From positions 434,001-498,000 of the forward strand of contig JASTWF010000335.1 in assembly GCA_030390025.1 (NCBI GenBank): 64,000 nucleotides of DNA. Reading direction: 5' to 3'. Positions 37,137 to 64,000 of this stretch are shown here, one piece after another; the stretch's first letter is position 1; every line of letters begins with the position of its first letter. This stretch comes from Squalus acanthias (lineage: Eukaryota). The position numbers and the translations under genes were made by a program. The notes under the pieces are model-generated. The model was not told the DNA's origin and ran no database searches. It saw only the letters and a list, made by a program, of their open reading frames with translations.

Positions 37137-37168
<32 letters not shown>

Positions 37169-38089: not shown

Positions 38090-38237
38090 CTGTTTCTCCC
38101 TCCACGGATGCTGCCTGGCCTGCTGAGTATTTCCAGCGTTTTCTGTAGGAACTCTTAACTGTAGGTCAGGTGTCCCTCTGTCCATGATTTTAACACCTCC
38201 TCCTCCCAATCTACTGGTTTATTTTAAGTGTGATGTG

Positions 38238-38603: not shown

Positions 38604-39273
38604 CTACGGAACTATAGACCAATTAGCTTCAGGCCAGTGGTAGGAAAGTTAATGGAATCATTACTCAAAGATGTAATAGAAAAACATCTAGAAGCTGAAA
38701 ATGTAATAAAGAGTAGTCAGCATGCCTTTCAATAGGAAAGGTCATGCTTGACATTCCTTATTGAATTCTTTGCAGAAGTAACAGAAAGGATAGATAAGGG
38801 TAAAGCAGTAGATGTAATATATTTGGATTTCCAAAAGGCCTTTGATAAGGTAGCGCATGGTAGACTCAGGACTAAGGGCAGAACATGTGGAGTCAGGGGA
38901 CAAGTAACAGAATGGATAGAGAGCTGGCTATAAAACTGAAAACTGGAGAGGAGGGATTAAGGGCTAGTTACTCAGCCTGGTAAAAGTTGGGAAGTGGTGT
39001 TCCACAAGGATCGGTGCTGCGACCACCGTTGTTCACCGATTACATAAATGATTTGGACTCGGGGAATCAGAAGTACAATTTCCAAATTTGCGGATGACAC
39101 CAAATTGGGGACTTTGTAGTCAATACAGAGGAGGACTGCGATGAAATACAGGGAGACATCAATAAACTTGCAGAATGGGTGTGTAACTGGCAAATGAACT
39201 TCAATATGGATCAGTGTGTGGTGGCATATTTTGGCAGGAAGAATAAGGAGGCCACATACTCCTTGGAAAATAA

Positions 39274-40002
39274 GGGCTGGATTTTGATACTGGGGCGGAT
39301 TGGGGTCGTGTTATCCACCCGACTGCAATTGGATGTGGGAGATTGATGCAATTTTCACCTAATTGGGCAATTGAGTTCCAGCATGTGGGAACCCATGAAT
39401 CAATTAATATTTTCAGTCTCAAAGATGCCTCTGATGATGTCATCATTGCTGCTGCATTGAAGGTCTTCAGAGACTGCCTGGCCTTTGCTGTGAGAGGACC
39501 TGGATGCAAAATGAGCAGCAGCAGCCCTAAGTCTGCTCCCAGATATTATAGGTCATGATGTGGAGATGCCGGCGTTGGACTGGGGTGGACAAAAATGAGA
39601 AGTGTTGTGTTGTGCGACTTCTCATTTTTGCCCAGATATTATAGAGAGAGAGAGAGAGAGAGACTCCTCATCCATCCAGATATGTCTCCCAGCCAGCCAA
39701 ATGTGCTCCCGCCAGGTTTCACAATCGTGGTTCAGAACAGGCGCGCTTCACGTACAACAAGGGTTAAAATCACAAAGGCCTTTCAAAATGGCATTATAGA
39801 GGCAATTTAGTGCTTGTTAAGGGCCTTAACAGCCTATCCCGCCTCTTACAGGCGGGACGCAGTCGGGACCAGCAGACACGATTTCATGAAAATTGCGTGG
39901 AGGCGGGATGGAGGCGGACTTGTGCCCGCCCGCCAGTTTTCGCAATTTTAACCCCCCACACGCCTCCAAACCCGCCTCCACGGGTCAATGAAAATCCAGC
40001 CC
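39274..40002. mobile_element. PIF/Harbinger-type MITE, copy 2, inverted relative to copy 1
   Basis: Same TIRs; flanks taa/aaa; body is the reverse complement of 36754-37411. Confidence 0.86.
39552..39630. mobile_element. 79-bp Penelope pLTR-end insertion with a 14-bp target duplication
   Basis: atgtggagatgccggcgttggactggggtggacaaaa matches 53607-53645; flanked by cccagatattatag at 39538-39551 and 39631-39644. Confidence 0.8.
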
Positions 40003-40308
40003 AAAGTGTCCAAATGGGTTCAGAGGAACAGAGGGATTTGGGGGTACAGATACACAATTCACTAAAAGTTGTGATGCAGGTTAATAAGGCCATAAAGAAA
40101 CAAAGCACTGGGGTTCATTTCTAAAGGGATAGAATTGAAAAGCAGAGAAGTTCTGTTAAACTTGTATCAAACCTTGGTTAGACCACACTTGGAGTACTGT
40201 GAACAGTTCTGCTCTCCATATCATAAAAAGGATATAGAGGCACTGGGGAAGAGGTAAAAAAGACATAGATGTTTCTACTTGCGGGCGAGACCAGAACCAA
40301 GGGCCATA

Positions 40309-41744: not shown

Positions 41745-43150
41745 AGTCATAGAAGCACAGAAGGAGGCCATTCGGCCCATCGAGTCCGTACTGGCTCTCT
41801 GTAGAGCAATCCGGTCAGTCCCATTCCCCCGCTCTATCCCCGTAGCCCTGCAAGTTTATTTCCCTCAAGTGCCTATCCCGTCTCCCCTTGAAAACATTGA
41901 GTGTCTCCGCTTTCACCACTTCCGTCGGCAGCGAGTTCCAGGTCCTCACCACTCGCTGCATAAAAAAGTTTTTCCTCATGTCCCCCCTGTATCTCTTGCC
42001 CAAAACCTTCAATCTGTGTCCCCTAGTCCTTGTACCATCAATTAGTGGGAACAGCCTTTCCCCGTTTAGCCTGTCCAAACCGGTCATAATCTTGCACACC
42101 TCTATCAAATCACCCCTCAACCTCCTTTGATCTAATGAAAACAAATCCAGCTTCTCCAACCTGTCCTTGTAGCTCAGATCCCCCATCGCTGGAACCATTG
42201 TGGTAAATCTCCGCTGCACCCTCTCAAGGGCCTTCATATCCTTCCTAAAGTGTGGTGACCAGAACTGGACACAATGCTCCAGTTGTGGCCTAACCAGCGC
42301 TTTATAAAGGTTCAACATAACTTCTCTACTTTTCTACTCAATACCTCTATTTATTAAGCCCAAGATCCCATATGCTTTGCTAACCACTCTCTCAATATGT
42401 CCTGCCACCTTCAGGGACCGATGCACATTAACTCCCAGGTCCCTCTGTCCCTGCACACTCTTTAAAACTGTGTAATTAACTGTATATTGCCCCTCCCTGT
42501 TCCCTCTGCCAAAATGCATCACCTCACACTTCTCTGTTTTAAATTCCACTTGTCTGTCCATTCTGCTAGCCTTTCTATGTCCTGTTGCAGTCGATTGGTA
42601 TCATCCTCACTGTTTGCCACATCCCCAAGTTTGATGTCATTGGCAAATTTAGAAATTCTACTCTGTATTCCAATATCGAGATCATTTATATATATCAAAA
42701 AAAGCAGTGGCCCCAGCACTGACTCTTGGGGAACACCACTGTCTACCATCCTCCAGTCTGAAAAACAACCATTTACCACAACTCGCTGTTTCCTGTCCTT
42801 AAGCCAATTCCTTATCCAAGCTGCCACTGACCCACCTATTCCATGAGCCTCAATTTTGTTAACCAGCCTTCTATGTGGTACTTTGTCAAACGCCTTCCGA
42901 AAATCCATGCAGACAACATCCATTGCATTCCCTTCATCAATCCTCCCTGTTACTTCATCGAAAAATTTTATTGGATTAGTCAAACACAATCTGCCTTTTA
43001 CAAATCCGTATTGGCTCTCCTTAATTAGCTTAAACCTCTCCAAGTGCCCGTTATTTTTTTCCTTGATTATTGTTTCTAAAACTTTACCCACCACTGATGT
43101 TAAACTGACCGGCCTGTAGTTACTAGGATTGTCCTTACACCCTTTATTGT
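41745..43150 (-). mobile_element. 5'-truncated CR1 LINE (same subfamily as 1537-2110)
   Basis: [45 protein letters not shown]; frameshifts. Confidence 0.95.
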
Positions 43151-43186
43151 ACAATGACAAAAGGAAACAAGTGCAGTTTTCATAGA

Positions 43187-43917
43187 ACGAGACCTGGGTG
43201 TCCTTGTGCACCAGTCGCTGAAGGTAAGCATGCAGGTGCAGCATGCGGTTAAGAAGGCAAATGGTATGTTGGCCTTCATAGCGAGAGGGTTTGAGTATAG
43301 GAACAGGGATGTCCTGCTGCATTTGTACAGGGCCTTGGTGAGACCACACCTTGAGTACTGTGTGCAGTTTTGGTCGCCTTATCTGAGGAAGGATGTTCTT
43401 GCCATGGAGGGAGTGCAGCGAAGATTCACAAGGCTGATACCTGGGATGGCAGGAATGACGTATGAGGAGAGATTGGGTCGATTGGGCTTATACTCGCTGG
43501 AGTTTAGAAGAATGAGAGGGGATCTCATTGAAACTTATAAAATTCTAACAGGACTAGACAGACTAGATGCAGGAAGGATGTTCCCGATGGCTGGGGAGTC
43601 CAGAACCAGGGGTCACAGTCTAAGGATAAGGGGTAAGCCATTTAGGACTGAGATGAGGAGGAATTTCTTCACCCAGAGAGTGGTGAACCTGTGGAATTCT
43701 CTGCCACAGAAGGCAGTTGAGGCCAATTCATTAAATATATTCAAGAAGGAGTTAGATATATTTCTTAAAGCTAAAGGGATCAAGGGATATGGGGAGAAGG
43801 CAGGGACAGGGTTCTGAATTTGGATGATCAGCCATGATCTCATTGAATGGCGGCGCAAGCTCGAGGGGCTGAATGGCCTGCTCCTGCTCCTATCTTCTAT
43901 GTTTCTATGTTTCTATG
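43187..43917 (+). mobile_element. CR1 3' fragment
   Basis: ORF 43206-43817 near-identical to the CR1 C-terminus elsewhere; (tttctatg)n tail. Confidence 0.95.
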
Positions 43918-45074: not shown

Positions 45075-46726
45075 AACAACAGCGACAACTTGTATTTATA
45101 CAGCGCCTTTTAACGTCGTAAAACGTCCCAATGTGCTTCACAGGAGTACTTTAAGACCAAAAAAATTTGACACCGATCCACATAAGGATAAATTAGGGGC
45201 AGGTTGACCGAAAGTTTGGTCAAAGAGGTAGGTTTTAAGAAGCGTCTTAAAGGAGGAGAGAGAGGTAGCGAGGCGGAGAGGTTCAGGGAGGGAATTCCAG
45301 AGCTTAGGGCTGAAAGGGTTAATTTGAACTCATGTTGAATTAAACCTCTCTTAGCTGTAAAGGGAATGGAAGTTATGTACGAAATAGAATAAGAACCAGA
45401 TGGATGATAAGGATTGGATGCCTAGCAGCATTCAAGGACAGAATACAATGGACATCTGTAGAGAAATACAATGGACAAGTGTGAGAATGAGATTAGACCC
45501 AGCACTCAGGCAAAACATAGAATGTGATTCCCAACAAATATTGCTTGCGTAATTGGATAATTGTTTTTAGTTTGTAGCTGACAAAGACAAGAAATATAAC
45601 GAATTAACCGGCTTAGTTTGAATTGACATAATTGTAATCATGTGATATTTTGTAACAATGTGATTGGATAATTCTTAAATAAAAGGTTGTAATTGACAAC
45701 GGTAGGTCGAGAAGCCGTGGTCACAAGGCCGGGTAAGGTCTATGACGCTTCTCCCAGAGATCTCTGAATATTAAATGAGCTGTTTGCTTTTACCTATCAA
45801 CACTGACTGGAGTGAATTGATTTCTCCCTAACAGGGCCTAGGCAACAGAAGGAGCTGACACTGAGACACACGCAACAACTACTTGTATTTATATAGCGCC
45901 TTTAACAGAGTAAAGCATCCCAAGATGCTGCACAGGTGTATTTTAAGACAAAAACAATTTGACACCGAGCCACATAAGGATAAATTATAAACCAAAGGTT
46001 GAGCGATTATAATCAGGCATCCTCAAGAGGGCAGAATTAGAGGAGCGCAGATATCTCGGGGGGGTTGTGGGGCTGAAGGAGATTACAGAGATAGGGAGGG
46101 GCGGATTTGAAAACAAGGATGAGAATTTTGAAATCGAGTCACTGCTTAACCGGGAGACAATGTAAGTCAGCGAGCACAGGGGTGATGGGCGAACGGGACT
46201 TGGTGCGAGTTAGGACACGGGCAGCCGAGTTTTGGATGACCTCAAGTTTACGTAGGGTGGAATGTGGGAGGCCAGCCAGGAGTGCGTTGGAATAGTCAAG
46301 TCTAGAGGTAACAAAGGCATGGATGAGGGTTTCAGCAGCGGATGAGCTGAGGCAGGGGCGGAGACGGGCGATGTTACAGAGGTGGAAATAGGCGGTCTTT
46401 GTTATGCTGCAGATATGTGGTCGGAAGCTCATTTCAGGGTCAAATATGACACCAAGGTTGCGAACAGTGTGGTTCAGCCTCAGACAGATGTTAGGGAGAG
46501 GGATGGAGTCAGTGGCTAGGGAACGGAGTTCGTGGTGGGGACCGAAAACAATGGCTTCGGTCTTCCCAATATTTAATTGGAGAAAATTTTTGCTCATCCA
46601 GAACTGTGTGTCGGACAAGCAATCTGACAAATTAGTGACCGTGGAGGGGTCGAGAGAAGAGGTAGTGAGGTAGAGCTGGGTGTCGTCAGCGTACATGTGG
46701 AAACTGACGCTGTGTCTGACATGAGC
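45075..46726 (-). mobile_element. L2-clade LINE fragment, inverted paralog of 6604-7720, interrupted by a solo LTR
   Basis: FHMYADDTQLYL...LIHAFVTSRLDYSNALL in ORF 46139-47158. Confidence 0.9.
45311..45833 (+). mobile_element. Solo LTR, 523 bp (Gypsy- or ERV-like)
   Basis: TG...CA ends with imperfect IR tgaaaggg/ccctaaca; 4-bp TSD gggc (45307-10, 45834-37); empty site in the paralog at ~7490; TATA-like taaataaaa (~45676) and attaaa (~45770) suggest + orientation. Confidence 0.85.
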
Positions 46727-47218
46727 TGTACAGTACCAGACAGCAGTGAATTGTCCCCTTTTAACCGTTGTGTACTGTACATGTATAGGAGCTGACACTG
46801 AGACACACATGGGCTGTACAGTACCAGACGGGAATAAATCATTCCCTTTTACCCGCTGTGTACTGTACATGTACAGGAGCTGACACTGAGACACACACGG
46901 ACCGTACAACACCAGACGGGAGTGAATCATTCCCTTTTTCCTGCTGTGTACAGTGCATGTACAGGAGATGACACTGAGACACACAAGGACCGTACAGTAC
47001 CAGACGGGAGTGAATCGTTCCCTTTTTCCTGCTGTGTACTGTACATGTACAGGAGCTGACACTGAGACACACACGGACCGTACAGTACCAGATGGGAGTG
47101 AATCGTTCCCTTTTTCCTGCTGTGTACTGTACATGTACAGGAGCTGACACTGAGACACACAAGGACCGTACAGTACCAGACGGGAGTGAATCGTTCCCTT
47201 TTTCCCGCTGTGTACTGT
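46727..47218 (-). repeat. 88-bp minisatellite, ~5.5 copies, inverted relative to 5847-6603
   Basis: Reverse complement of the same unit. Confidence 0.95.
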
Positions 47219-47589
47219 TCCACAATGCAGGATTTTCTGAATGGATATCGCTTTTCAACCACTCAAATCTTTAGTGTTGACAAACTACATTTACCTGACA
47301 GATTCTGAGCCCCAAATTGAAACTTTAAGGTATTGAAAAGGCCACAGAAATGTGATTTGTTGTTATTTTAAAGAGTGAGACAAAATATTTTCAGGTAATT
47401 TTCAATCAAGTGCAATTCAGAAAGAGAACAGAGAGGTGGGAGGAGATAGGGAAAAGGGAGAAGGAGAGAGAGCAAGAGAGAGAGAGAGAGAAGTCGGATG
47501 AGAGTGTGAGCAGAAAAGAGAGGAGTGGGAGATGGGGAGAGAGATGAGGCAGAGGGAGAGTGAGAGAGAAACAGATGGACAGACATTGA

Positions 47590-48775
47590 AACATAGAAAC
47601 ACAGAAAAATAGAGGCAGGAGTAGGCCATTCGGCCCTTCGAGCCAGCTCCGCCATTCAATATGATCATGGCTGATCCTCTATCTCAATACCATATTCCCG
47701 CTCTCTCCCCATACTCCTTGATGCCTTTTGTGTCTAGAAATCTATCTAACTCCTTCTTAAATATATTCAGTGACTTGGCCTCCACAGTTGGCTGTGGTCG
47801 AGAATTCCACAGGTTCACCACCCTCTGAGTGAAGAAATTTCTCCTCATCTCAGTCCTAAATGTCCTACCCCGTATCCTGAGACGGTGACCCCTCGTTCTG
47901 GACCCCCCCAGCCAGGGGAAACATCCTCCCTGCATCCAGTCTGTCAAGCCCTGTCAGAATTTTATACGTTTCAATGAGATCCCCTCTCATTCTTCTAAAC
48001 TCTAGTGAATACAGGCCTAGTCCACCCAATCTCTCCTCATACGACAGTCCTGCCACCCCAGGAATCAGTCTGGTGAACCTTCGCTGCACTCCCTCTATGC
48101 CAAGTATATCCTTTCTTAGGTAAGGAGACCAAAACTGCACACAGTACTCCAGGTGTGGTCTCACCAAGGCCCTGTATAACTGTAGTAAGACATCCTTGCT
48201 CCTGTACTCAAATCCTCTTGCAATGAAGGCCAACATGCCATTTGCCTTCCTAACTGCTTGCTGCACCTGCATGTTTGCTTTCAGTGACTGGTGTACAAGG
48301 ACACCCAGGTCCCTTTGTACATCAACATTTCCCAAACTATCACCATTTAAATAATACTCTGCCTTTCTGTTTTTCCGACCGAAGTGGATAACTCCACATT
48401 TATCCACGTTATACTGCATCTGCCATGTATTTGCCCACTCACTCAACTTGTCTAAATCGCCTTGAAGCCTCTTTGCATCCTCCTCACAACTCACAGTCCC
48501 ACCTAGTTTCGTGTCGTCAGCAAACTTTGGAAATATTACATTTGGTTCCCTCATCCAAATCATTGATATATATTGTGAATAGCTGTGGCCCAAGCACAGA
48601 TCCCTGCGGTACCCCACTAGTCACCGCCTGCCACCCCGAAAAAGACCCATTTATTTCTACTCTCTGTTTCCTGTCTGTTAACCAATTTTCAATCCATGCC
48701 AGTATATTACCCCCAATCCCATGTGCTTTAATTTTGCACACTAACCTCTTACATGGGGCTTTATCAAGGCCTTCT
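47590..48775 (-). mobile_element. 5'-truncated CR1 LINE (same subfamily as 8535-9616)
   Basis: [27 protein letters not shown]; acatagaaac tail; frameshift at ~48525. Confidence 0.95.
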
Positions 48776-48859
48776 GAGAAGAGATTGAAAGAGAGAGAGC
48801 GAGAGAAACAGTGACTCTGTCTCAGCTCCTGTCCATGTACAGTACACGGTGGGCAAAAC

Positions 48860-49225
48860 TCCAGGTCTCTCTGTTGCTGCACCCCCTTTAACATTGTACC
48901 ATCCAGCTTATATTGCCTCTCCTCATTCTTCCTTCCAAAAGGCATCGCTTCACACTTCTCAGCATTAAAGTTAATCTGCCAGGAGTCTGCCCATTTCAAC
49001 AGTTTGCCTACGTCCCCCTGAACTATGTCACTATCCTACTGACTGTTCACTACATTTCCAGTTTCGTGTCATCTGCAAACTTTGAAAATGCGCCCTGGAT
49101 ACCCAAGTCCAGGTCATTAAAATAAATATATCAAAAAGTTCACCACTAATTTCTGTTTTCAGTCTCTTAGCCAATGTCATATCCACTTTGCCACTGTCCA
49201 TTTAATCCCATGGGCTTCAATTTTG
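48860..49225 (-). mobile_element. CR1 RT fragment with deletions
   Basis: KFADDTKL and [15 protein letters not shown] on the reverse strand. Confidence 0.8.
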
Positions 49226-52200
49226 CCCCATCAACCACTCCCAGGGCAGGTACAGCACGGGTTAGATACAGAGTAAAGCTCCCTCGACACTGTCCCATCA
49301 ACCACTCCCAGGGCAGGTACAGCACGGGTTAGATACAGAGTAAAGCTCCCTCGACACTGTCCCATCAAACTCTCCCAGAGCAGGTACAGCACGGGTTAGA
49401 TACAGAGTAAAGCTCCCTCTACACTGTCCCATCAAACACTCCCAGGGCAGGTACAGCACAGGTTAGATACAGAGTAAAGCTCCCTCTACACTGTCCCATC
49501 AAACACTCCCAGGGCAGGTACAGCACGGGTTAGATACAGAGTAAAGCTCCCTCTTCACTGTCCCATCAAACACTCCCAGAGCAGGTACAGCACGGGGGTT
49601 AGATACAGAGTAAAGCTCCCTCTACATTGTCCCATCAAAAACTCCCAGGGCAGGTACAGCACGGGTTAGATACAGAGTAAAGCTCCCTCTACACTGTCCC
49701 ATCAAACACTCCCAGGGCAGGTACAGCACAGGGTTAGATACAGAGTAAAGCTCCCTCTACACTGTCCCATCAAACACTGCCAGGGCAGCTACAGCACGGG
49801 TTAGATACAGAGTAAAGCTCCCTCTACACTGACCCCATCAAACACTTCCAGGGCAGGTACAGCACGGGTTAGATACAGAGTAAAGCTCCCTCTACACTGT
49901 CCCATCAAACACTCCCAGGGCAGGTACAGAACGGGTTAGATACAGAGTAAAGCTCCCTCTACACTGTCCCATCAAACACTCCAAGGGCAGGTACAGAACG
50001 GGTTAGATACAGAGTAAAGCTCCCTCTACACTGTCCCATCAAGCGCTCCCAGGGCAGGAACAGAACGGGTTAGATACAGAGTAAATCTCCCTCTACACTG
50101 TCCCATCAAACACTCCCAGGGCAGGTACAGAACGGGTTAGATACAGAGTAAAGCTCCCTCTACACTGTCCCATCAAACACTCCAAGGGCAGGTACAGAAC
50201 GGGTTAGATACAGAGTAAAGCTCCCTCTACACTGTCCCATCAAGCGCTCCCAGGGCAGGAACAGAACGGGTTAGATACAGAGTAAATCTCCCTCTACACT
50301 GTCCCATCAAACACTCCCAGGGCAGGTACAGAACGGGTTAGATACAGAGTAAAGATCCCTCTACACTGTCCCATCAAACACTCCCAGGGCAGGTACAGCA
50401 TGGGTTAGATACAGAGTAAAGCTCCCTCTACACTGACCCCATCAAACACTCCCAGGGCAGGTACAGCATGGGTTAGATACAGAGTAAAGCTCCCTCTACA
50501 CTGTCCCATCAAACACTCCCAGGGCAGGTACAGCACAGGGTTAGATACAGAGTAAAGCTCCCTCTACACTGTCCCATCAAACACTGCCAGGGCAGGTACA
50601 GCACGGGGTTAGATACAGAGTAAAGCTCCCTCTACACTGACCCCATCAAACACTTCCAGGGCAGGTACAGCACGGGTTAGATACAGAGTAAAGCTCCCTC
50701 TACACTGTCCCATCAAACACTCCCAGGGCAGGTACAGAACGGGTTAGATACAGAGTAAAGCTCCCTCTACACTGTCCCATCAAACACTCCAAGGGCAGGT
50801 ACAGAACGGGTTAGATACAGAGTAAAGCTCCCTCTACACTGTCCCATCAAACGCTCCCAGGGCAGGAACAGAACGGGTTAGATACAGAGTAAAGCTCCCT
50901 CTACACTGTCCCATCAAACACTCCCAGGGCAGGTACAGAACGGGTTAGATACAGAGTAAAGATCCCTCTACACTGTCCCATCAAACACTCCCAGGGCAGG
51001 TACAGCATGGGTTAGATACAGAGTAAAGCTCCCTCTACACTGACCCCATCAAACACTCCCAGGGCAGGTACAGCATGGGTTAGATACAGAGTAAAGCTCC
51101 CTCTACACTGTCCCATCAAACACTCCCAGGACAGGTACAGCACGGGTTAGATACAGAGTAAAGCTCCCTCTACACTGTCCCATCAAACACTCCCAGGGCA
51201 GGTACAGCACGGGTTAGATACAGAGTAAAACTCCCTCTACACTGTCCCATCAAACACTCCCAGGGTCAGGTACAGCACGGGGTTAGATACAGAGTAAAGC
51301 TCCCTCGACACTGTCCCATCAAACACTCCCAGGGCAGGTACAGCACGGGTTAGATACAGAGTAAAGCTCCCTCTACACTGTCCCATCAAACACTCCCAGG
51401 GTCAGGTACAGCACGGGATAGATACAAAGTAAAGCTCCCTCTACACTGTCTCATCAAACACTCCCAGGGCAGGTACAGCACAGGTAAGATACAGAGTAAG
51501 TCTCCCTCTACACTGTCTCATCAAACACTCCCAGGGCAGGTACAGCACGGGTTAGATACAGAGTAAAGCTCCCTCTACACTGTCCCATCAAACACTCCCA
51601 GGGCAGGTACAGCACGGGTTAGATACAGAGTAAAGCTCCCTCTACACTGTCCCATCAAACACTCCCAGGGCAGGTACAGCACGGGTTAGATACAGAGTAA
51701 AGCTCCCTCTACACTGTCCCATCAAACACTCCCAGGGCAGGTACAGCACGGGTTAGATACAGAGTAAAGCTCCCTCTACACTGTCCCATCAAACACTCCC
51801 AGGGCAGGTACAGAACGGGTTAGATACAGAGTAAAGCTCCCTCTACACTGTCCCATCAAACACTCCCAGGGCAGGTACAGAACGGGTTAGATACAGAGTA
51901 AAGCTCCCTCTACACTGTCCCATCAAGCGCTCCCAGGGCAGGAACAGAACGGGTTAGATACAGAGTAAAGCTCCCTCTACACTGTCCCATCAAACACTCC
52001 CAGGGCAGGTACAGAACGGGTTAGATACAGAGTAAAGCTCCCTCTACACTGTCCCATCAAACACTCCCAGGGCAGGTACAGCACGGGTTCGATACAGAGT
52101 AAAGCTCCCTCTACACTGACCCATCAAACACTCCCAGGGCAGGTACAGCACGGGTTAGATACAGAGTAAAGCTCCCTCTACACTGTCCCATCAAACACTG

Positions 52201-53692
52201 CCAGGGCAGGTACAGCACGGGTTAGATACAGAGTAAAGCTCCCTCTACACTGACCCATCAAACACTCCAGGGCAGGTACAGCACGGGTTAGATACAGAGT
52301 AAAGCTCCCTCTACACTGTCCCATCAAACACTCCCAGGGCAGGTACAGCACGGGTTAGATACAGAGTAAAGCTCCCTCTACACTGTCCCATCAAACACTC
52401 CCAGGGCAGGTACAGCACGGGTTAGATACAGAGTAAAGCTCCCTCTACACTGTCCCATCAAACACTCCCAGGGCAGGTACAGCACGGGTTAGATACAGAG
52501 TAAAGCTCCCTCTACACTGTCCCATCAAACACTCCCAGGGCAGGTACAGCACGGGTTAGATACAGAGTAAAGCTCCCTCTACACTGTCCCATCAAACACT
52601 CCCAGGGCAGGTACAGCACGGGTTAGATACAGAGTAAAGCTCCCTCTACACTGTCCCATCAAACACTCCCAGGGCAGGTACAGCACGGGTTAGATACAGA
52701 GTAAAGCTCCCTCTACACTGTCCCATCAAACACTCCCAGGGCAGGTACAGCACGGGTTAGATACAGAGTAAAGCTCCCTCTACACTGTCCCATCAAACAC
52801 TCCCAGGGCAGGTACAGCACGGGTTAGATACAGAGTAAAGCTCCCTCTACACTGTCCCATCAAACACTCCCAGGGCAGGTACAGCACGGGTTAGATACAG
52901 AGTAAAGCTCCCTCTACACTGTCCCATCAAACACTCCCAGGGCAGGTACAGCACGGGTTAGATACAGAGTAAAGCTCCCTCTACACTGTCCCATCAAACA
53001 CTCCCAGGGCAGGTACAGCACGGGTTAGATACAGAGTAAAGCTCCCTCTACACTGTCCCATCAAACACTCCCAGGGCAGGTACAGCACGGGTTAGATACA
53101 GAGTAAAGCTCCCTCTACACTGTCCCATCAAACACTCCCAGGGCAGGTACAGAACGGGTTAGATACAGAGTAAAGCTCCCTCTACACTGTCCCATCAAGC
53201 ACTCCCAGGGCAGGTACAGAACGGGTTAGATACAGAGTAAAGCTCCCTCTACACTGTCCCATCAAGCGCTCCCAGGGCAGGAACAGAACGGGTTAGATAC
53301 AGAGTAAAGCTCCCTCTACACTGTCCCATCAAACACTCCCAGGGCAGGTACAGAACGGGTTAGATACAGAGTAAAGATCCCTCTACACTGTCCCATCAAA
53401 CACTCCCAGGGCAGGTACAGCATGGGTTAGATACAGAGTAAAGCTCCCTCTACACTGACCCCATCAAACACTCCCAGGGCAGGTACAGCACGGGTTAGAT
53501 ACAGAGTAAAGCTCCCTCTACACTGTCCCATCAAACACTTCCAGGGCAGGTACAGCACGGGTTAGATACAGAGTAAAGCTCCCTCTACACTGTCCCATCA
53601 AACACTATGCGGAGATGCCGGTGTTGGACTGGGGTGGACAAAATTGAGAGGTCGCACAACACCAGGTTATAGTCCAACAGTTTTATTTTAAC

Positions 53693-53730
53693 TCACAAGC
53701 TTTCAGAGTTACAACTCCTTCGTCAGGTGA
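53693..53730 (-). ncRNA. Minimal hammerhead ribozyme motif in the inverted pLTR (PLE family A)
   Basis: tcac-CUGACGA-a-ggagt(tgta)actct-GAAA-gc-UU-gtga. Confidence 0.75.
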
Positions 53731-54233
53731 AGTGAGGAGATACAGAATCGTCAAAGCATATATAGATCGAGAACAATGCATGTGTAACTTACAATTGCAG
53801 ACAACTGAATTCAATCATCCTGACTGTTTATCTGCCGAGGTGTGATAAAGTTAATCAGGTCAGCCAGGAAGGTACCACATCAAAGACATAGCAAGATACA
53901 ACTGAGACAATGAGGTGGAATCGCATGGGGTCTAACGTGTCAAAAGCTGCCGTCTGTATGTAAAACGATTAACTTTAAAATTTTTACTTTTTTACTGGGA
54001 ATCACATCTGTGAACAAGCCAACGACGACTCGAGTCCGGATCACGTCATGTATCGTGACATGAACCCAAGATCCCGATTGAGACCGTCTTCATGAGTGCG
54101 GAACTTGGCTATCAGTTTCTGCTCGATGATTTTGCGTTGTCGTGTTTTCCTAAGGCCGCCTTGGAGAACGCTTACCCACAGATCCGAGGCTGAATGTCCT
54201 TGACTGCTGAAGTGTTCCCCGACTGGGAGGTAA

Positions 54234-55160
54234 CACCTCAGCACTTCACTCTACCGCAAGCCCACGGACAACCTCACGATGCTCCACTTCTCCAGCTTCC
54301 ACCCTAACCACGTTAAAGAAGCCATCCCCTATGGACAAGCCCTGCGAATACACAGGATCTGCTCAGACGAGGAGGAACGCGATGGACACCTACGGACGCT
54401 GAAAAACGCCCTCGTAAGAACGGGATATGACGCTCGACTCATCGATCGACAGTTCCGACGGGCCACAGCGAAAAATCGCATAGACCTCCTCAGAAGGCAA
54501 ACACGGGACACAACCAACAGGGTACCCTACGTCGTCCAGTACTTCCCCGGAGCGGAGAAACTACGCCATGTTCTTCGCAGCCTTCAACATGTCATCGATG
54601 ACGACAAACACCTCGCTAAGGCCATCCCCACGCCTCCACTACTTGCCTTCAAACAGCCGCCTAACCTCAGAAGTACCATCGTTCGCAGCAAATTACCCAG
54701 CTTTCAGGATAACAGCGACCACGACACCACACAACCCTGCCACGGCAAACTCTGCAAGACATGCCAGATCATCAACACAGATACCATCATCACACGTGAG
54801 GACACTACCCACCAGGTACATGGTACATACTCATGTGACTCGGCCAACGTTGTCTACCTCATACGTTGCAGGAAAGAATGCACCGCGGCATGGTACATCG
54901 GCGAGACCATGCAGACACTGAGACAACGTATGAACGAGCACCGCGCAACAATCGCCAGGCAGGATTGTTACCTCCCAGTCGGGGAACACTTCAGCAGTCA
55001 AGGACATTCAGCCTCGGATCTGCGGGTAAGCGTTCTCCAAGGCGGCCTTAGGAAAACACGACAACGCAAAATCATCGAGCAGAAACTGATAGCCAAGTTC
55101 CGCACTCATGAAGACGGTCTCAATCGGGATCTTGGGTTCATGTCACGATACATGACGTGA
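54234..55160 (+). CDS. Penelope-like polyprotein C-terminal part (RT thumb, Cys-rich linker, GIY-YIG endonuclease); 5'-truncated but open
   Basis: TSLYRKPTD..LHFSSFHP; PCHGKLCKTC; NVVYLIRC...YIGET...R..EH; HFS...H; E..LI..F.T...GLN. The Cys linker suggests a Neptune-type PLE (inference). Confidence 0.9.
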   Translation, partial: HLSTSLYRKPTDNLTMLHFSSFHPNHVKEAIPYGQALRIHRICSDEEERDGHLRTLKNALVRTGYDARLIDRQFRRATAKNRIDLLRRQTRDTTNRVPYVVQYFPGAEKLRHVLRSLQHVIDDDKHLAKAIPTPPLLAFKQPPNLRSTIVRSKLPSFQDNSDHDTTQPCHGKLCKTCQIINTDTIITREDTTHQVHGTYSCDSANVVYLIRCRKECTAAWYIGETMQTLRQRMNEHRATIARQDCYLPVGEHFSSQGHSASDLRVSVLQGGLRKTRQRKIIEQKLIAKFRTHEDGLNRDLGFMSRYMT

Positions 55161-55470
55161 TCCGGACTCGAGTCGTCGTTGGCTTGTTCACAGATGTGAT
55201 TCCCAGTAAAAAAGTAAAAATTTTAAAGTTAATCGTTTTACATACAGACGGCAGCTTTTGACACGTTAGACCCCATGCGATTCCACCTCATTGTCTCAGT
55301 TGTATCTTGCTATGTCTTTGATGTGGTACCTTCCTGGCTGACCTGATTAACTTTATCACACCTCGGCAGATAAACAGTCAGGATGATTGAATTCAGTTGT
55401 CTGCAATTGTAAGTTACACATGCATTGTTCTCGATCTATATATGCTTTGACGATTCTGTATCTCCTCACT

Positions 55471-55508
55471 TCACCTGACGAAGGAGTTGTAACTCCGAAA
55501 GCTTGTGA
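55471..55508 (+). ncRNA. Minimal hammerhead ribozyme motif in the pLTR (PLE family A)
   Basis: tcac-CUGACGA-a-ggagt(tgta)actcc-GAAA-gc-UU-gtga, followed by aaataaaa. Confidence 0.8.
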
Positions 55509-56306
55509 GTTAAAATAAAACTGTTGGACTATAACCTGGTGTTGTGCGACCTCTCAATTTTGTCCATCAAACACTCCCAGGGCAGGTACAGAACGGGTTA
55601 GATACAGAGTAAAGCTCCCTCTACACTGTCCCATCAAACACTCCAAGGGCAGGTACAGAACGGGTTAGATACAGAGTAAAGCTCCCTCTACACTGTCCCA
55701 TCAAACGCTCCCAGGGCAGGAACAGAACGGGTTAGATACAGAGTAAAGCTCCCTCTACACTGTCTCATCAAACACTCCCAGGGCAGGTACAGAACGGGTT
55801 AGATACAGAGTAAAGATCCCTCTGCACTGTCCCATCAAACACTCCCAGGGCAGGTACAGCATGGGTTAGATACAGAGTAAAGCTCCCTCTACACTGACCC
55901 CATCAAACACTCCCAGGGCAGGTACAGCATGGGTTAGATACAGAGTAAAGCTCCCTCTACACTGTCCCATCAAACACTCCCAGGACAGGTACAGCACGGG
56001 TTAGATACAGAGTAAAGCTCCCTCTACACTGTCCCATCAAACACTCCCAGGGTCAGGTACAGCACAGGGTTAGATACAGAGTAAAGCTCCCTCGACACTG
56101 TCCCATCAAACACTCCCAGGGCAGGTACAGCACGGGTTAGATACAGAGTAAAGCTCCCTCTACACTGTCCCATCAAACACTCCCAGGGTCAGGTACAGCA
56201 CGGGATAGATACAAAGTAAAGCTCCCTCTACACTGTCTCATCAAACACTCCCAGGGCAGGTACAGCACAGGTAAGATACAGAGTAAGTCTCCCTCTACAC
56301 TGTCTC

Positions 56307-57456
56307 ATCGCATAGACCTCCTCAGAAGGCAAACACGGGACACAACCAACAGGGTACCCTACGTCGTCCAGTACTTCCCCGGAGCGGAGAAACTACGCCA
56401 TGTTCTTCGCAGCCTTCAACATGTCATCGATGACGACAAACACCTCGCTAAGGCCATCCCCACGCCTCCACTACTTGCCTTCAAACAGCCGCCTAACCTC
56501 AGAAGTACCATCGTTCGCAGCAAATTACCCAGCTTTCAGGATAACAGCGACCACGACACCACACAACCCTGCCATGGCAAAATCTGCAAGACATGCCAGA
56601 TCATCAACACAGATACCACCATCACACGTGAGGACACTACCCACCAGGTACATGGTACATACTCATGTGACTCGGCCAACGTTGTCTACCTCATACGTTG
56701 CAGGAAAGAATGCACCGCGGCATGGTACATCGGCGAGACCATGCAGACACTGAGACAACGTATGAACGAGCACCGCGCAACAATCGCCAGGCAGGATTGT
56801 TACCTCCCAGTCGGGGAACACTTCAGCAGTCAAGGACATTCAGCCTCGGATCTGCGGGTAAGCGTTCTCCAAGGCAACCTTAGAAACACACGACAACGCA
56901 AAATCATCGAGCAGAAACTGATAGCCAAGTTCCGCACTCATGAAGACGGTCTCAATCGGGATCTTGGGTTTATGTCACGATACATGACGTGATCCGGACT
57001 CGAGTCGTCGTTAGCTTGTTCACAGATGTGATTCCCAGTAAAAAAGTAAAAATTTTCCCAGTAAAAAAGTAATTTTTTTTTAAAGCTTTTCGTTTTACAT
57101 ACAGACGGCAGCTTTTGACACGTTAGAACCCCTGCGACTACACCTCATTGTCTCAGTTGTATCTTGCTATGTCTTTTGATGTGGTACCTTCCTGGCTGAC
57201 TTAATTAACTTTATCACACCTCGGCAGATAGTCAGGATGATTTAATTTATTGGTCTGCAATTGTAAAGTACACATGCTTTGTTTTCCATCTATATATGCT
57301 CTGGCGATTCTGTATCCAATTTACTTCACCTGAGGAAGGAGCAATCGATAGCTCCGAAAGCTTGTGATTTCAAATAAAACTGTTGGACTATAACCTGGTG
57401 TTGTGCGACCTCTCAATTTTGTCCACCCCAGTCCAACACCGGCATCTCCGCATCAT
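56307..57456 (+). mobile_element. Second Penelope-like insertion, 5'-truncated, with complete 3' tail
   Basis: ORF part near-identical to ~54476-55160 (stop at 56992); pLTR ends ccccagtccaacaccggcatctccgcatcat; catc on both flanks. Confidence 0.95.
57326..57367 (+). ncRNA. Minimal hammerhead ribozyme motif, variant stem II
   Basis: tcac-CUGAGGA-a-ggagc(aatcgata)gctcc-GAAA-gc-UU-gtga. Confidence 0.8.
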
Positions 57457-60400
57457 CATCAAACACTCCCAGGGCAGGTACAGCACGGGTTAGATACAGA
57501 GTAAAGCTCCCTCTACACTGTCCCATCAAACACTCCCAGGGCAGGTACCGCACGGGTTAGATACAGAGTAAAGCTCCCTCGACACTGTCCCATCAAACAC
57601 TCCCAGGGCAGGTACCGCACGGGTTAGATACAGAGTAAAGCTCCCTCTACACTGTCCCATCAAACACTCCCAGGGCAGGTACATCGCGGGTTCGATACAG
57701 AGTAAGGCTCCCTCTACACTGTCCCATCAAACACTCCCAGGACAGGAACAGCATGGGTTCGATACAGAGTAAATCTCCCTCTACACTGTCCCATCAAACA
57801 CTCCCAGGGCAGGTACAGCACGGGTTAGATACAGAGTAAAGCTCCCTCTAAACTGTCCCATCAAACACTCCCAGGGCAGGTACAGCACAGGTTAGATACA
57901 GAGTAAAGCTCCCTCTACACTGTCCCACCAAACACTCCCAGGGCAGGTACAGCATGGGTTAGATACAGAGTAAAGCTCCCTCTACACTGTCCCCATCAAA
58001 CACTTCCAGGGCAGGTACAGCACGGGTTAGATACAGAGTAAAGCTCCCTCTACACTGTCCCATCAAACACTCCCAGGGCAGGTACAGCACAGGTTAGATA
58101 CAGAGTAAAGCTCCCTCTACACTGTCCCACCAAACACTCCCAGGGCAGGTACAGCATGGGTTAGATACAGAGTAAAGCTCCCTCTACACTGACCCATCAA
58201 ACACTCCAGGGCAGGTACAGCACGGGTTAGATACAGAGTAAAGCTCCCTCTACACTGTCCCATCAAACACTCCCAGGGCAGGTACAGAACGGGTTAGATA
58301 CAGAGTAAAGCTCCCTCTACACTGTCCCATCAAACACTCCCAGGGCAGGTACAGAACGGGTTAGATACAGAGTAAAGCTCCCTCTACACTGTCCCATCAA
58401 ACACTCCCAGGGCAGGTACAGCACGGGTTAGATACAGAGTAAAGCTCCCTCTACACTGTCCCATCAAACACTCCCAGGGCAGGTACAGAACGGGTTAGAT
58501 ACAGAGTAAAGATCCCTCTACACTGTCCCATCAAACACTCCCAGGGCAGGTACAGCATGGGTTAGATACAGAGTAAAGCTCCCTCTACACTGACCCCTCA
58601 AACACTCCCAGGGCAGGTACAGCATGGGTTAGATACAGAGTAAAGCTCCCTCTACACTGTCCCATCAAACACTCCCAGGACAGGTACAGCACGGGTTAGA
58701 TACAGAGTAAAGCTCCCTCTACACTGTCCCATCAAACACTCCCAGGGCAGGTACAGCACGGGGTTAGATACAGAGTAAAACTCCCTCTACACTGTCCCAT
58801 CAAACACTCCCAGGGTCAGGTACAGCACGGGGTTAGATACAGAGTAAAGCTCCCTCGACACTGTCCCATCAAACACTCCCAGGGCAGGTACAGCACGGGT
58901 TAGATACAGAGTAAAGCTCCCTCTACACTGTCCCATCAAACACTCCCAGGGTCAGGTACAGCACGGGATAGATACAAAGTAAAGCTCCCTCTACACTGTC
59001 TCATCAAACACTCCCAGGGCAGGTACAGCACAGGTAAGATACAGAGTAAGTCTCCCTCTACACTGTCTCATCAAACACTCCCAGGGCAGGTACAGCACGG
59101 GTTAGATACAGAGTAAAGCTCCCTCTACACTGTCCCATCAAACACTCCCAGGGCAGGTACCGCACGGGTTAGATACAGAGTAAAGCTCCCTCTACACTGT
59201 CCCATCAAACACTCCCAGGGCAGGTACCGCACGTGTTATATACAGAGTAAAGCTCCCTCTACACTGTCCCATCAAACACTCCCAGGGCAGGTACATCGCG
59301 GGTTAGATACAGAGTAAGGCTCCCTCTACACTGTCCCATCAAACACTCCCAGGACAGGAACAGCATGGGTTCGATACAGAGTAAATCTCCCTCTACACTG
59401 TCCCATCAAACACTCCCAGGGCAGGTACAGCACGGGTTAGATACAGAGTAAAGCACCCTCTAAACTGTCCCATCAAACACTCCCAGGGCAGGTACAGCAC
59501 AGGTTAGATACAGAGTAAAGCTCCCTCTACACTGTCCCACCAAACACTCCCAGGGCAGGTACAGCATGGGTTAGATACAGAGTAAAGCTCCCTCTACACT
59601 GACCCCATCAAACACTTCCAGGGCAGGTACAGCACGGGTTAGATACAGAGTAAAGCTCCCTCTAAACTGTCCCATCAAACACTCCCAGGGCAGGTACAGC
59701 ACAGGTTAGATACAGAGTAAAGCTCCCTCTACACTGTCCCACCAAACACTCCCAGGGCAGGTACAGCATGGGTTAGATACAGAGTAAAGCTCCCTCTACA
59801 CTGACCCCATCAAACACTTCCAGGGCAGGTACAGCACGGGTTAGATACAGAGTAAAGCTCCCTCTACACTGTCCCATCAAACACTCCCAGGGCAGGTACA
59901 GAACGGGTTAGATACAGAGTAAAGCTCCCTCTACACTGTCCCATCAAACACTCCAAGGGCAGGTACAGAACGGGTTAGATACAGAGTAAAGCTCCCTCTA
60001 CACTGTCCCATCAAACGCTCCCAGGGCAGGAACAGAACGGGTTAGATACAGAGTAAAGCTCCCTCTACACTGTCCCATCAAACACTCCCAGGGCAGGTAC
60101 AGAACGGGTTAGATACAGAGTAAAGATCCCTCTACACTGTCCCATCAAACACTCCCAGGGCAGGTACAGCATGGGTTAGATACAGAGTAAAGCTCCCTCT
60201 ACACTGACCCCATCAAACACTCCCAGGGCAGGTACAGCATGGGTTAGATACAGAGTAAAGCTCCCTCTACACTGTCCCATCAAACACTCCCAGGACAGGT
60301 ACAGCACGGGTTAGATACAGAGTAAAGCTCCCTCCACACTGTCCCATCAAACACTCCCAGGGCAGGTACAGCACAGGTTAGATACAGAGTAAAGCTCCCT

Positions 60401-61269
60401 CTACACTGTCCCATCAAACACTCCCAGGGCAGGTACAGCATGGGTTAGATACAGAGTAAAGCTCCCTCTACACTGACCCCATCAAACACTCCCAGGGCAG
60501 GTACAGCATGGGTTAGATACAGAGTAAAGCTCCCTCTACACTGTCCCATCAAACACTCCCAGGACAGGTACAGCACGGGTTAGATACAGAGTAAAGCTCC
60601 CTCTACACTGTCCCATCAAACACTCCCAGGGCAGGTACAGCACGGGGTTAGATACAGAGTAAAACTCCATCTACACTGTCCCATCAAACACTCCCAGGGT
60701 CAGGTACAGCACGGGGTTAGATACAGAGTAAAGCTCCCTCGACACTGTCCCATCAAACACTCCCAGGGCAGGTACAGCACGGGTTAGATACAGAGTAAAG
60801 CTCCCTCTACACTGTCCCATCAAACACTCCCAGGGCAGGTACCGCACGGGTTAGATACAGAGTAAAGCTCCCTCTACACTGTCCCATCAAACACTCCCAG
60901 GGCAGGTACATCGCGGGTTAGATACAGAGTAAAGCTCCCTCTACACTGTCCCATCAAACACTCCCAAGACAGGAACAGCATGGGTTAGATACAGAGTAAA
61001 TCTCCCTCTACACTGTCCCATCAAACACTCCCAGGGCAGGTATAGCACGGGTTAGATACAGAGTAAAGCTCCCTCTACACTGTCCCATCAAACACTCCCA
61101 GGGCAGGTACAGCACAGGTTAGATACAGAGTAAAGCTCCCTCTACACTGTCCCATCAAACACTCCCAGGGCAGGTACAGCATGGGTTAGATACACAGTAA
61201 AGCTCCCTCTACACAATCCCATCAGTCACTCCCAGGTCGGGTACAGCACGGGTTAGATACAGATTCCCG

Positions 61270-62305
61270 AGAACTTAGAAGAATTCAAGGTGATCTGATT
61301 GAAACATGTAAAATTCTTAGAGAGCGTGACATAGTAGACGCTGAGAGGCTGTTTCCCCCCCTGGCTGGAGATTCTACAACTAAGTAATATGTGTACTGTG
61401 GGGATTAAAGCAGGGACAGGGTACTGGATTTGGATGATCAGCCATGATCGTATTGAATGGCGGAGCAGGCTCGATGGGCCGAATGGCCTACTCCTGCTCC
61501 TAGATTCTATGTTTCTATGTTTCTATGTTTTAAGGGTCACAGTCTCAGGATAAGGGGTCGGCTAGTTAGGACTGAGATGAGGAGAAATTTCTTCACTCAG
61601 AGGTTTGAGAATCTTTGGAATTATCTACCCCAGAGGTCTGTGGAGGCTCAGTCGATGTGGAAGGATGTTCTTGCCATGGAAGGATTGTCGTAAGAATGAG
61701 CCTTACGCGTGGTGAACTTAAAGTAAGCTTTAATCAACTAAAAAGGTGCTACATACAAAAGAGGTCTTACTCTATGCCTCTCCAGGATCCAACTGATCAG
61801 TCCAGTATTTATCCTGGACTAATCACAGGAAGTGATGCAATAAAGTTCAAGTCACAGGAAGCTGTATTGTGTTACCACATTGAGTTCAGCGAAGATTCAC
61901 AAGGCTGATACCTGGGATGGCAGGAATGACATATGAGGAGAGATTGGGTCGATTGGGTTTATACTCACTGGAGTATAGAAGAATGAGAGGGGATCTCATC
62001 AAAACATATAAAATTCTGACAGATCTGGACAAACTAGATGCAGGAAGAATGTTCCCGATGGTCGGAGAATCCAGAACCAGGGGTCATAATCTAAGGATAA
62101 GGGGTAAGCCATTTAGGACAGAAATGAGGAAGAATTTCTTCACCCAGAGAGTGGTGAACCTGTGGAATTCTCTACCACAGAAGGTAGTTGAGGCCAAGTC
62201 ATTAAATATATTCAAGAATGAGTTAGACATATTTCTTAAAGCTAAAGGTATCAAGGGATATGGGGAGAAGGAAGGGTAGGGTACTGAGTTTGGATGATCA
62301 GCCAT
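61270..62305 (+). mobile_element. Patchwork of CR1 3' fragments with a nested tail (~61385-61530) and an unrelated insert (~61685-61884)
   Basis: GDLIETCKIL, RGHSLRIRGR, ORF 61917-62279; taag on both sides of the nested tail. Confidence 0.85.
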
Positions 62306-63200
62306 GAGATAGGGAGGGTTGTAGGGCTGGAGGAGGTTACAGAGATAGGGAGGGTTGTAGGGGCTGGAGGAGGTTATAGAGCTAGGGAGGGTTGTAGGGC
62401 TGGAGGAGGTTACAGAGATAGGGAGTGTTGTCGGGGCTGGAAGAGGTTACAGAGATAGGGAGGGTGTAGGACAGGAGGAGGTTACAGAGATAGGGAGGGC
62501 TGTCGAGCTGGAGGAGGTTACAGAGATAGGGAGGGTTGTAGGGGCTGGAGGAGGTTACAGAGATAGGGAGGGTTGTAGGGGCTGGAGGAGGTTACAGAGA
62601 TAGGGAGGGTTGTAGGGGCTGGAGGAGGTTACAGAGATAGGGAGGGTTGTAGGGACTGGAGGAGGTTACACAGATAGGGAGGGTTGTAGGGGCTGGAGGA
62701 GGTTACAGAGATAGGGAGGGTTGTAGGGACTGGAGGAGGTTACAGAGATAGGGAGGGTTGTATGGCTGGAGGAGGTTACAGAGATAGGGAGGGTTGTAGG
62801 GCTGGAGGAGGTTACAGAGATAGGGAGGGTTGTAGGGCTGGAGGAGTTTACAGAGATAGGGAGGGTTGTACGGCTGGAGGAGGTTACAGAGATAGGGAGG
62901 GTTGTAGGGCTGGAGGAGGTTACAGAGATAGAGAGGGTTGTTGGGCTGGAGGAGGTTACAGAGATAGGGAGGGTTGTAGGGGCTGGGGGAGGTTACAGAG
63001 ATAGGGAGGGTTGTAGGGGCTGGGGGAGGTTACAGAGATAGGGAGGGTTGTAGGGGCTGGAGGAGGTTACAGAGATAGGGAGGTTGTAGGGCTGGAGGAG
63101 GTTACAGAGATAGGGAGGGTTGTAGGGGCTGGAGGAGGTTACAGAGATAGGGAGGGTTGTAGGGGCTGGAGGAGTTACAGAGATAGGGAGGGGCGAGGCC
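62306..63200. repeat. 36-38-bp minisatellite derived from L2 ORF2, ~24 copies
   Basis: Unit gagatagggagggttgtaggggctggaggaggttaca; matches L2 at ~46062-46100 (gggttgtggggctgaaggagattacagagatagggagggg). Confidence 0.93.
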
Positions 63201-63460
63201 ATGGGGGGGTACTGGGAGCCAGTGTAGGTCGGCGAGCACTGGGGCGTTGGGTGAACGCGACTTGGTGCGAGTTAGGATAGCAGCATTTTGGATGAGCTGG
63301 AGATTACGGAGGGTGAGGTTGGGATTTCGGCCAGGAGTGCTTTGGAATATTCGACTCTGGAGGTTACAAAGGCATGGGTGAGAGTTTCAGCAGGAGATGG
63401 GCTGAGGCAGGGACGGGAGACGGGCGATGTTACGGAGATGGAAGTAGGCATTCTTGGCGA
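63200..63460 (-). mobile_element. L2-clade LINE fragment contiguous with the minisatellite
   Basis: PCLSPSPAETLTHAFVTSRVEYSKALL. Confidence 0.85.
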
Positions 63461-63689
63461 AGGAGAGACTTGTGAGCTGGCAGTGTGCAATTTCGCGATG
63501 TGCACCCCGGGAATGGGACGATCAGATTTTTTACCCTGGACCGTTGAAAATTCTACACATTCTTTGCAGCTTCGAACTGAAAGTGTGACAGAATTTCAGT
63601 GCCTGTTTGGTTAATCATTTCACCTGCAGTGTCCTGTAAAACAAACCTCAAATGCTACAGATAGATGACTCAATTAAATATTTGTTGTA

Positions 63690-64000
63690 TGCGACCCTGA
63701 GGAAGAGAGTGTTTGAAGACCAGGACCTCAAACCCGGCACCAAGCTCATGGTCTACAGAGCAGCAGTGATACCCGCCCTCATGTATGCCTCAGAGACATG
63801 GACCATGTACAGCAGGCACCTCAAAGCACTGGAGAGGTACTACCAACGCTGCCTCCGCAAGATCCTGCAAATCCATTGGCAGGATAGGCGCATCAATGTC
63901 AGTGTTCTCGCTCAGCCCAACATCCCCAGCATCAAAGCTTTGACCACGCTCGATCAGCTCCGATGGACGGGTCACATCGTCCGCATGCCCGATACAAGAC
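63690..64000 (+). mobile_element. RTE-clade LINE ORF C-terminal fragment, running off the window
   Basis: Manual translation: LRKRVFEDQDLKPGTKLMVYRAAVIPALMYASETWT...QRCLRKILQIHWQD...QLRWTGHIVRMPDTR. Confidence 0.88.

Follow-up and report, generated by a model that had tools for sequence, protein, structure and literature searches.

Metazoan Penelope-like elements (PLEs) carry minimal type I hammerhead ribozymes in their pseudo-long terminal repeats (pseudo-LTRs), for which the consensus CUGANGAH-G..C-GAAAN-palindrome-NUH has been published (Cervera and De la Pena 2014, PMC4209133, text and Fig. S3). The hammerhead of the Schistosoma mansoni PLE is inactive as a monomer and weakly active as a dimer (PMC4209133), and that of an Anolis PLE cleaves only with the protein of the element (Frangieh et al. 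2024, PMC11167929). Type I hammerheads derived from PLE pseudo-LTRs also occur in animal repeats as non-LTR retrozymes, which have been reported in one chondrichthyan genome (PMC7229834; Li et al. 2026, bioRxiv 10.64898/2026.07.22.740005). None of the rows examined in Table S1 and Fig. S3 of PMC4209133 comes from a cartilaginous fish, and a literature search combining hammerhead, shark and Penelope returned no shark example, its sole match being a review that uses 'shark' for the shape of a head. Here, we analysed 64,000 nucleotides of the spiny dogfish Squalus acanthias (assembly GCA_030390025.1, contig JASTWF010000335.1, positions 434,001 to 498,000, forward strand; hereafter the window, with positions counted from its first letter), in which two insertions of a PLE carry three motifs that, judged from their sequence, are genuine hammerhead-shaped sequences of the minimal type I in a 3' pseudo-LTR.

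Hammerhead motifs and the element that carries them

The three motifs, called copies 1 to 3, and the open reading frame (ORF) of the element lie as follows.

53693-53730, minus strand: hammerhead copy 1; C3 at 53726; predicted cut between 53697 and 53696
55471-55508, plus strand: hammerhead copy 2; C3 at 55475; intact core; predicted cut between 55504 and 55505
57326-57367, plus strand: hammerhead copy 3; C3 at 57330; intact core; predicted cut between 57363 and 57364
54234-55160, plus strand: 5'-truncated ORF of 308 aa, with the C-terminal part of a reverse transcriptase (RT), a C-x4-C-x2-C linker and a GIY-YIG endonuclease

An earlier reading of this DNA from its letters (the sequence-only reading) had located the three copies, and its coordinates and letters held when rechecked on the sequence. 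All three follow one order: TCAC, CTGANGA, an extra A, a 5-bp stem II, GAAA, GC, TT and GTGA. The core boxes CUGANGA and GAAA and the NUH triplet, with U as H17, are present in each, and stem I has four Watson-Crick pairs throughout, plus a U-G pair in copies 1 and 2. The unpaired nucleotide between A9 and 10.1 is A in the three copies, and A or U in 15/15 tabulated motifs. Stem II reads GGAGT..ACTCT in copy 1, ending in G10.1-U11.1; GGAGT..ACTCC with a loop of 4 nt in copy 2; and GGAGC..GCTCC with a loop of 8 nt in copy 3, where the 10.5-11.5 pair is C-G. Copies 2 and 3 both have the G10.1-C11.1 pair. In RNA folded from the predicted transcription start (see below), the pair probability of stem II was 0.72-0.97. 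The motifs are found in the sense of the ORF, approximately 315 nt 3' of its stop codon and approximately 100 nt before the tail, which is the pseudo-LTR position.

In hammerhead numbering, A14 and U17 are core and cleavage-site residues. The AAGCUU palindrome that had been proposed as stem III is present, but for this reason only AGCU, which spans 15.1-16.1 in all three copies, can pair in the active fold. With this correction, the core, the extra A, the AGCU and the position after the ORF bear out the proposal of minimal type I hammerheads in a PLE pseudo-LTR with a dimer-type palindrome.

A generic type I hammerhead descriptor, run on both strands of the window in a strict and a loose version, gave five sites: the three copies, a fourth strict site at 37700 on the minus strand and, at 2807, a loose site that looks like a chance match. 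When the window was simulated 100 times with a first-order Markov model, strict sites averaged 0.01 (maximum 1) compared with four observed, and loose sites averaged 0.18.

The motifs resemble the published metazoan PLE hammerheads in CUGANGA, the extra nucleotide, G10.1-C11.1, GAAA, a palindromic 15.2-16.2 and NUH, as well as in a short helix I, the pseudo-LTR location and high variability between subfamilies (PMC4209133). The features that the sequence-only reading found striking are present but already known from that 2014 consensus, to which the G10.1-C11.1 pair, the extra A and the palindrome belong. The GCUU ending is shared with PLE motifs of Philodina and Chrysemys (PMC4209133, Fig. 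S3), whereas helix II has 5 bp here and 7-8 bp in S. mansoni. The core changes found in the portions of PMC4209133 covered are U3-A8, with no U4C, a variant that is common in the present family.

In the encoded protein, the endonuclease has two Cys between VVY and YIG and a conserved His, while the RT catalytic core is absent. The Pfam GIY-YIG model matched with E=4e-4 at 21 bits, slightly below the cut-off of 22.6. A search for protein relatives gave 56 matches from 874 candidates, among them RT-bearing proteins of Heptranchias perlo (90% identity) and one of Scyliorhinus torazame (84%). In 16 aligned proteins, C169, C174 and C177 of the linker are invariant, as are the CCHH residues of the endonuclease, namely, C212 and C216 (between Y208 and Y221-G223), H236 and H252. 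Neptune and Nematis PLEs likewise have a C-terminal GIY-YIG domain with two Cys between GIY and YIG and a CX2-5CxxC linker, which Penelope and Poseidon lack (Craig et al. 2021, bioRxiv 10.1101/2021.04.23.441226, PMC8557442). By its linker and endonuclease, in a window that holds no RT core, the element is classed as Penelope-like with a Neptune/Nematis-type linker. Its 3' end gave 0 stretches when viral, metagenome and prokaryote collections were scanned for exact patterns, and a viral protein scan for relatives confirmed 0/17 candidates.

The insertions and their surroundings are as follows.

49227-61263, plus strand: array of a 67-bp satellite hosting both insertions; no hammerhead in the unit
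53595-53606, plus strand: left target-site duplication of insertion 1, 9-12 bp, with 3 nt common with the element end
53607-54235, minus strand: inverted 3' arm of insertion 1, carrying a 28-nt tail at 53607-53634
55509-55566, plus strand: conserved 3' terminus without tail; 55513-55566 is identical in copy 3
55564-55575, plus strand: right target-site duplication of insertion 1
56307-57456, plus strand: insertion 2, 5'-truncated and direct, with ORF end (56309-56992), divergent 3' untranslated region (UTR) and tail
39552-39630: 79-bp miniature inverted insertion derived from the 3' end of the same family; of its arms, only the left has a tail; no hammerhead

The unit 53607-55566 is a single insertion in which the inverted arm has the tail and the direct arm lacks it, flanked by 9-12 bp of duplicated satellite. 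Copies 1 and 2 lie in the arms of its 601-nt inverted repeat, of which 599/601 positions are identical; both mismatches are C>T at CpG, and one of them (53705) makes copy 1 G-U. Since the two copies belong to one inverted repeat, they arose in one insertion event, and the three copies offered as separate evidence reduce to two independent ones. Insertion 2 has a short CATC duplication or microhomology at its ends. The miniature has a 14-bp target duplication (39538-39551 and 39631-39644), and its tail continues into an ATG that is likely the ORF start.

5' truncation, an inverted arm, a tail at one end and a short target-site duplication are the insertion traits of endonuclease-bearing PLEs, and an inverted arm, tail and duplication are published PLE anatomy (PMC3846280; Craig et al. 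2021). In Neptune and Nematis PLEs, 5' truncation, an inverted 5'-truncated arm, a tail of approximately 30 bp at one end and insertion into repeats have been described, although the target is a microsatellite there and a GC-rich 67-bp satellite here (Craig et al. 2021). In PAc, the Poseidon element of Anolis carolinensis, the hammerhead likewise lies close to the 5' end of the unit, and the two reverse-transcription start sites of PAc, which yield ends with and without the tail, fit the arms of both inverted insertions in the window (PMC11167929). PAc differs in the absence of the Cys linker and in that its ORF starts inside stem II, with the tail 111-118 nt into the ORF, whereas the tail here ends at the ATG approximately 125 nt beyond the predicted start. 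In non-LTR retrozymes, every unit of a tandem non-coding array has its own ribozyme, whereas the present motifs are in ORF-bearing copies; no hammerhead motif was found in the 67-bp array or in a 42-bp array of the window, and thus no tandem ribozyme units of that kind.

The intact 308-codon frame, the target-site duplication and the 599/601 identity of the arms indicate that the insertions are young. Without an RT core these copies are unable to encode the enzyme; they are dead products, and in a read-through RNA copies 1 and 2 would sit buried in a 601-bp hairpin. Between the two insertions (54476-55566 compared with 56308-57425), the ORFs differ by 1.2%, the UTRs by 6.1% and the sequences surrounding the ribozyme by 19%, with 0% over the final 54 nt, a gradient that suggests a mosaic origin or a fast-changing promoter region. 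The ORF codon changes (three synonymous, four non-synonymous) are uninformative on selection. Both insertions are at the same CATC site of the satellite unit (53595-53606 and 57457-57460); with n=2, site-specific targeting of the satellite was set aside.

Variation within and between families

Variation in this family was read from four of 24 listed public runs, all consisting of contigs, aligned on copy 1. Depth was summed over contigs and divergent contigs were clipped, so the shares are not copy counts; the result on constrained positions comes from 40/41 table rows. Pair counts were taken from a structure-anchored table, since MAFFT placed the stems wrongly when nine motifs were aligned. 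The alternative shares at 10.5 and 11.5 were 0.11/0.10, 0.33/0.35, 1.0/1.0 and 0.09/0.12, both sides shifting at matching shares in 4/4 runs, which corroborates the compensatory U-A to C-G change in stem II claimed from the copies. The consensus of loose-end contigs in run X3 has the C-G stem II with a 3-nt loop. In contrast, the G-U variant of copy 1, previously listed beside that change, proved to be a minority C>T change at CpG, and so decay rather than covariation: C holds 94, 86, 100 and 58% of depth at the 11.1 site (53705) in the four runs.

Among the contigs, 4/7 free motif positions were variable compared with 2/31 constrained positions (P=0.006), the variation clustering at the tip and loop of stem II, and U4 was the only core residue to vary among those listed. 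Of the 10 mismatches between copies 2 and 3, none lies in the 31 constrained positions, with P=2e-5 in a 52-nt span picked post hoc, P=0.007 over 173 nt and P=0.10 over the whole UTR. Copy 3 carries the alternative allele of the public runs at 10/12 listed flank sites that differ from copy 2; this recurrence shows that the two UTRs are real subfamilies and not assembly noise. Contig depth over the conserved terminus after the ribozyme (53641-53691) was approximately 10 times or more that over the motif and UTR.

A second family with hammerheads is present in the window.

37668-37704, minus strand: hammerhead with stem I AGTT/AACT, palindrome ACGT and G-U at 10.1-11.1
38053-38089, plus strand: hammerhead with damaged stem II (G-G mismatch)
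38502-38538, plus strand: hammerhead with one stem I mismatch

The three motifs, registered at 37700 (minus strand), 38057 and 38506, have stems that differ from those of the first family around the same core, and their palindrome is ACGU in place of AGCU. The cluster (37560-38604) also contains a fourth copy, truncated within stem II, at approximately 38240-38343, duplicating 37688-37793.

We also searched 18 distant loci taken from the protein alignment, 9/18 of which have the motif on the ORF strand; these represent six distinct elements, four of them approximately 70% alike. At four loci (L001, L014, L015 and L016, with L015 = L016), the motif was found by a scan that set no condition on the palindrome (0.05 sites on average in simulations, maximum 1), and the extra nucleotide, G10.1-C11.1 and the palindrome are present in 4/4. 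The other five motif loci come from a scan that required the palindrome, so their palindromes are not independent evidence. No motif was found at the remaining 9/18 loci, some of which stop shortly after the ORF match. The L001 motif is approximately 245 nt 3' of the stop codon, similar to the window elements, and L011 has U4C (L011:2766) where L012 has U4, outside the family of the window. The different stems around the same core in the second family and in 9/18 loci are better support than the covariation in the window. One relative, at L018:363-1271, is on a contig of a Solemya gill-symbiont assembly and is 61% identical to the shark protein; the contig probably derives from the host, and such similarity is unusual between a bivalve and a shark.

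Proposed cleavage by paired motifs and competing explanations

Two nucleotides are too few for a loop closed by A15.1-U16.1, which by RNA geometry leaves stem III to arise between two motifs. In the source element, we consider it fairly probable that the motifs would cut RNA after GCUU as a pair only, presumably with the help of a protein. The 5' and 3' pseudo-LTR motifs of one tandem transcript would pair AGCU with AGCU and swap their stem I strands; two active cores would then arise, releasing RNA of unit length. Stem II would be the sole helix kept within each motif in this dimer fold, which would account for the variation of stem II among subfamilies against a constant stem I and palindrome. 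With both of these in common, copies 2 and 3 could pair with each other.

Several lines of evidence count against cutting by paired motifs, among which are the predicted energies. By nearest-neighbour calculation, the active dimer had -19.5 (copy 2) and -23.5 (copy 3) kcal/mol, compared with -22.0 and -26.0 for two monomers and -31.2 and -36.9 for a stem-II-swapped duplex formed via the self-complementary loop II. The active dimer of copies 2 and 3 is thus 2.5 kcal/mol above two monomers and 12-13 above the loop II duplex, in agreement with the published low activity (none for the monomer, low for the dimer) and dependence on protein. Two candidate effects were set aside. Loop II is self-complementary in copies 2 and 3, but as a conserved dimer device it was not adopted, because 3-nt loops occur among the contigs and in the second family, and the loop II duplex would leave stem III unformed. 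Masking of stem I by the upstream UTR in read-through RNA was ruled out, as shuffled upstream sequence lowers stem I equally (fraction of shuffles at or below the observed value 0.48-0.93 in 8/8 motifs).

The contrary evidence also includes the following points, several of which favour a second explanation: the motif may be a true hammerhead by descent whose cleavage is dispensable or relaxed, kept as a passenger or as a promoter or protein-binding RNA end. All 17 public runs that contain at least half of the search words consist of contigs, and no pile-ups of starts or ends were listed for them. The core variant U4C (53725) holds 57, 29, 0 and 11% of depth in the four runs and is thus common in 3/4, and U4C lowers hammerhead activity considerably in vitro (PMC3088659). 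Excess conservation of the core, named beforehand in the sequence-only reading as the refuting test, came out neutral in the contigs, where 2/31 constrained positions were variable compared with 29/456 in the flanks (P=0.69). The compensatory change is a single pair at the tip of stem II, beside a loop of 3, 4 or 8 nt. The claim of a structure under selection in a recently active family therefore stands in part: the copies are young and the pair change is real, but there are two copies, one pair and a core no quieter than its flanks. Selection, where acting, is on source elements rather than on the window copies. Copies 2 and 3 also agree completely over the 54 nt that follow the motif, which are not ribozyme, the initiator-like sequence described below overlaps stem I, and all three second-family copies lack G10.1-C11.1 (G-U or A-U instead), two of them having a broken pair. 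Mutating the ribozyme of the Anolis element leaves insertion in vitro normal, so that cleavage is not needed there, and the study, in the parts covered, detected no RNA ends at the cleavage position (PMC11167929); Naiad PLEs are described as thriving without canonical hammerheads. Against dispensable cleavage, the core, the extra nucleotide and a palindrome are kept across families with unrelated stems, whose proteins are approximately 22-36% identical to that of the window; U4 alone varies among the core residues listed; and a viroid ribozyme with U4C is reported to remain infection-competent. We therefore regard dispensable or relaxed cleavage as rather unlikely, although it is the most serious of the alternatives. 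The protein dependence in Anolis and the prediction of states lower in energy than the active dimer would also suit a protein-stabilized monomer, or another pairing with the palindrome incidental. This is improbable given the loop geometry noted above, the inactivity of the S. mansoni monomer and the switch of 15.2-16.2 from GC to CG between families while it stays self-complementary. Finally, a chance resemblance repeated by recent duplication could draw on the existence of just two independent copies and on the Rfam covariance search, in which neither 48000-64000 nor 57290-57400 matched a hammerhead model at E<=10. The hammerhead search was thus divided, the generic descriptor recovering all three copies and the Rfam models none, likely because helix III is absent. 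The simulated chance level of 0.01 per window, the motif on the ORF strand in 9/18 related loci and the exact fit to the published consensus make chance very hard to credit, and cutting by paired motifs is retained as the preferred explanation.

Predicted promoter, neighbouring features and implications

Consensus patterns for TATA and initiator elements match the sequence directly before the ribozyme.

55437-55443, plus strand; 57291-57297, plus strand; 53758-53764, minus strand: predicted TATA-like TATATAT, 31 nt before the initiator-like A
55466-55472, plus strand: initiator-like YYANWYY, with predicted +1 at 55468, 3 nt before stem I; also at 57323 (plus strand) and 53733 (minus strand)

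In 3/3 copies, TATATAT is 38-39 nt before C3 and the initiator-like A is at -7, though copies 2 and 3 differ around them. A strict test for TATA plus initiator was passed by 4/13 motifs, namely, copy 2, copy 3, L010 (1156-1192) and L015 (1164-1201). A loose test, chosen after looking, was passed by 7/13, adding two second-family copies and L001, and failed by six. The background was 0.0002 for the strict test in the window and <=0.010 for the loose test in the loci. In L010, L011 and L012, a 150-bp direct repeat starts 3 nt before C3, beside the predicted start, and a single X3 contig departs from the reference at 53733, the predicted +1. TCAKTY is found just upstream of the core in 9/56 rows of Fig. 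S3 of PMC4209133, counted by eye and without a computed background. TATA plus TCACT was noted earlier in the Adineta pseudo-LTR (PMC3846280), and Penelope of Drosophila virilis is described as TATA-less. Among literature titles and abstract openings, with two key papers outside this coverage, none links the start site to the ribozyme.

These patterns raise the possibility, which we hold tentatively and think somewhat doubtful, that the ribozyme is the first thing transcribed: TATA and initiator would start an RNA polymerase II transcript 3-7 nt before the core, and cleavage would clip a capped leader of approximately 37 nt, switching the message to an uncapped or circular template. If true, this promoter reading would also explain the very short helix I, and the widespread U4C subfamily would be a natural slow-switch variant.

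Elsewhere in the window, 36753-37412 and 39273-40003 are opposite-orientation copies of an element of approximately 650-730 bp with 12-bp terminal inverted repeats, resembling miniature inverted-repeat transposable elements; the 79-bp PLE miniature is inside the second of these. A 312-codon frame at 10670-11608 on the minus strand has a strong Galactosyl_T match (E=7e-56) and adjoins the 22-kb array of the 42-bp repeat (11705-34089). Fragments resembling long interspersed nuclear elements, with endonuclease or RVT_1 matches, are found at 2704-4607, 8432-9301, 42519-43487 and 46139-49035.

The finding adds a shark example to a described class of ribozymes and, as given, changes little. PLE hammerheads are kept across animals, yet they were dispensable for insertion in vitro. 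In this respect, the dogfish family is natural test material, with stem II variants that are expected to heterodimerize, a common U4C variant and a predicted start directly before the ribozyme. Such material makes cutting in vivo, and its purpose, testable with short constructs.

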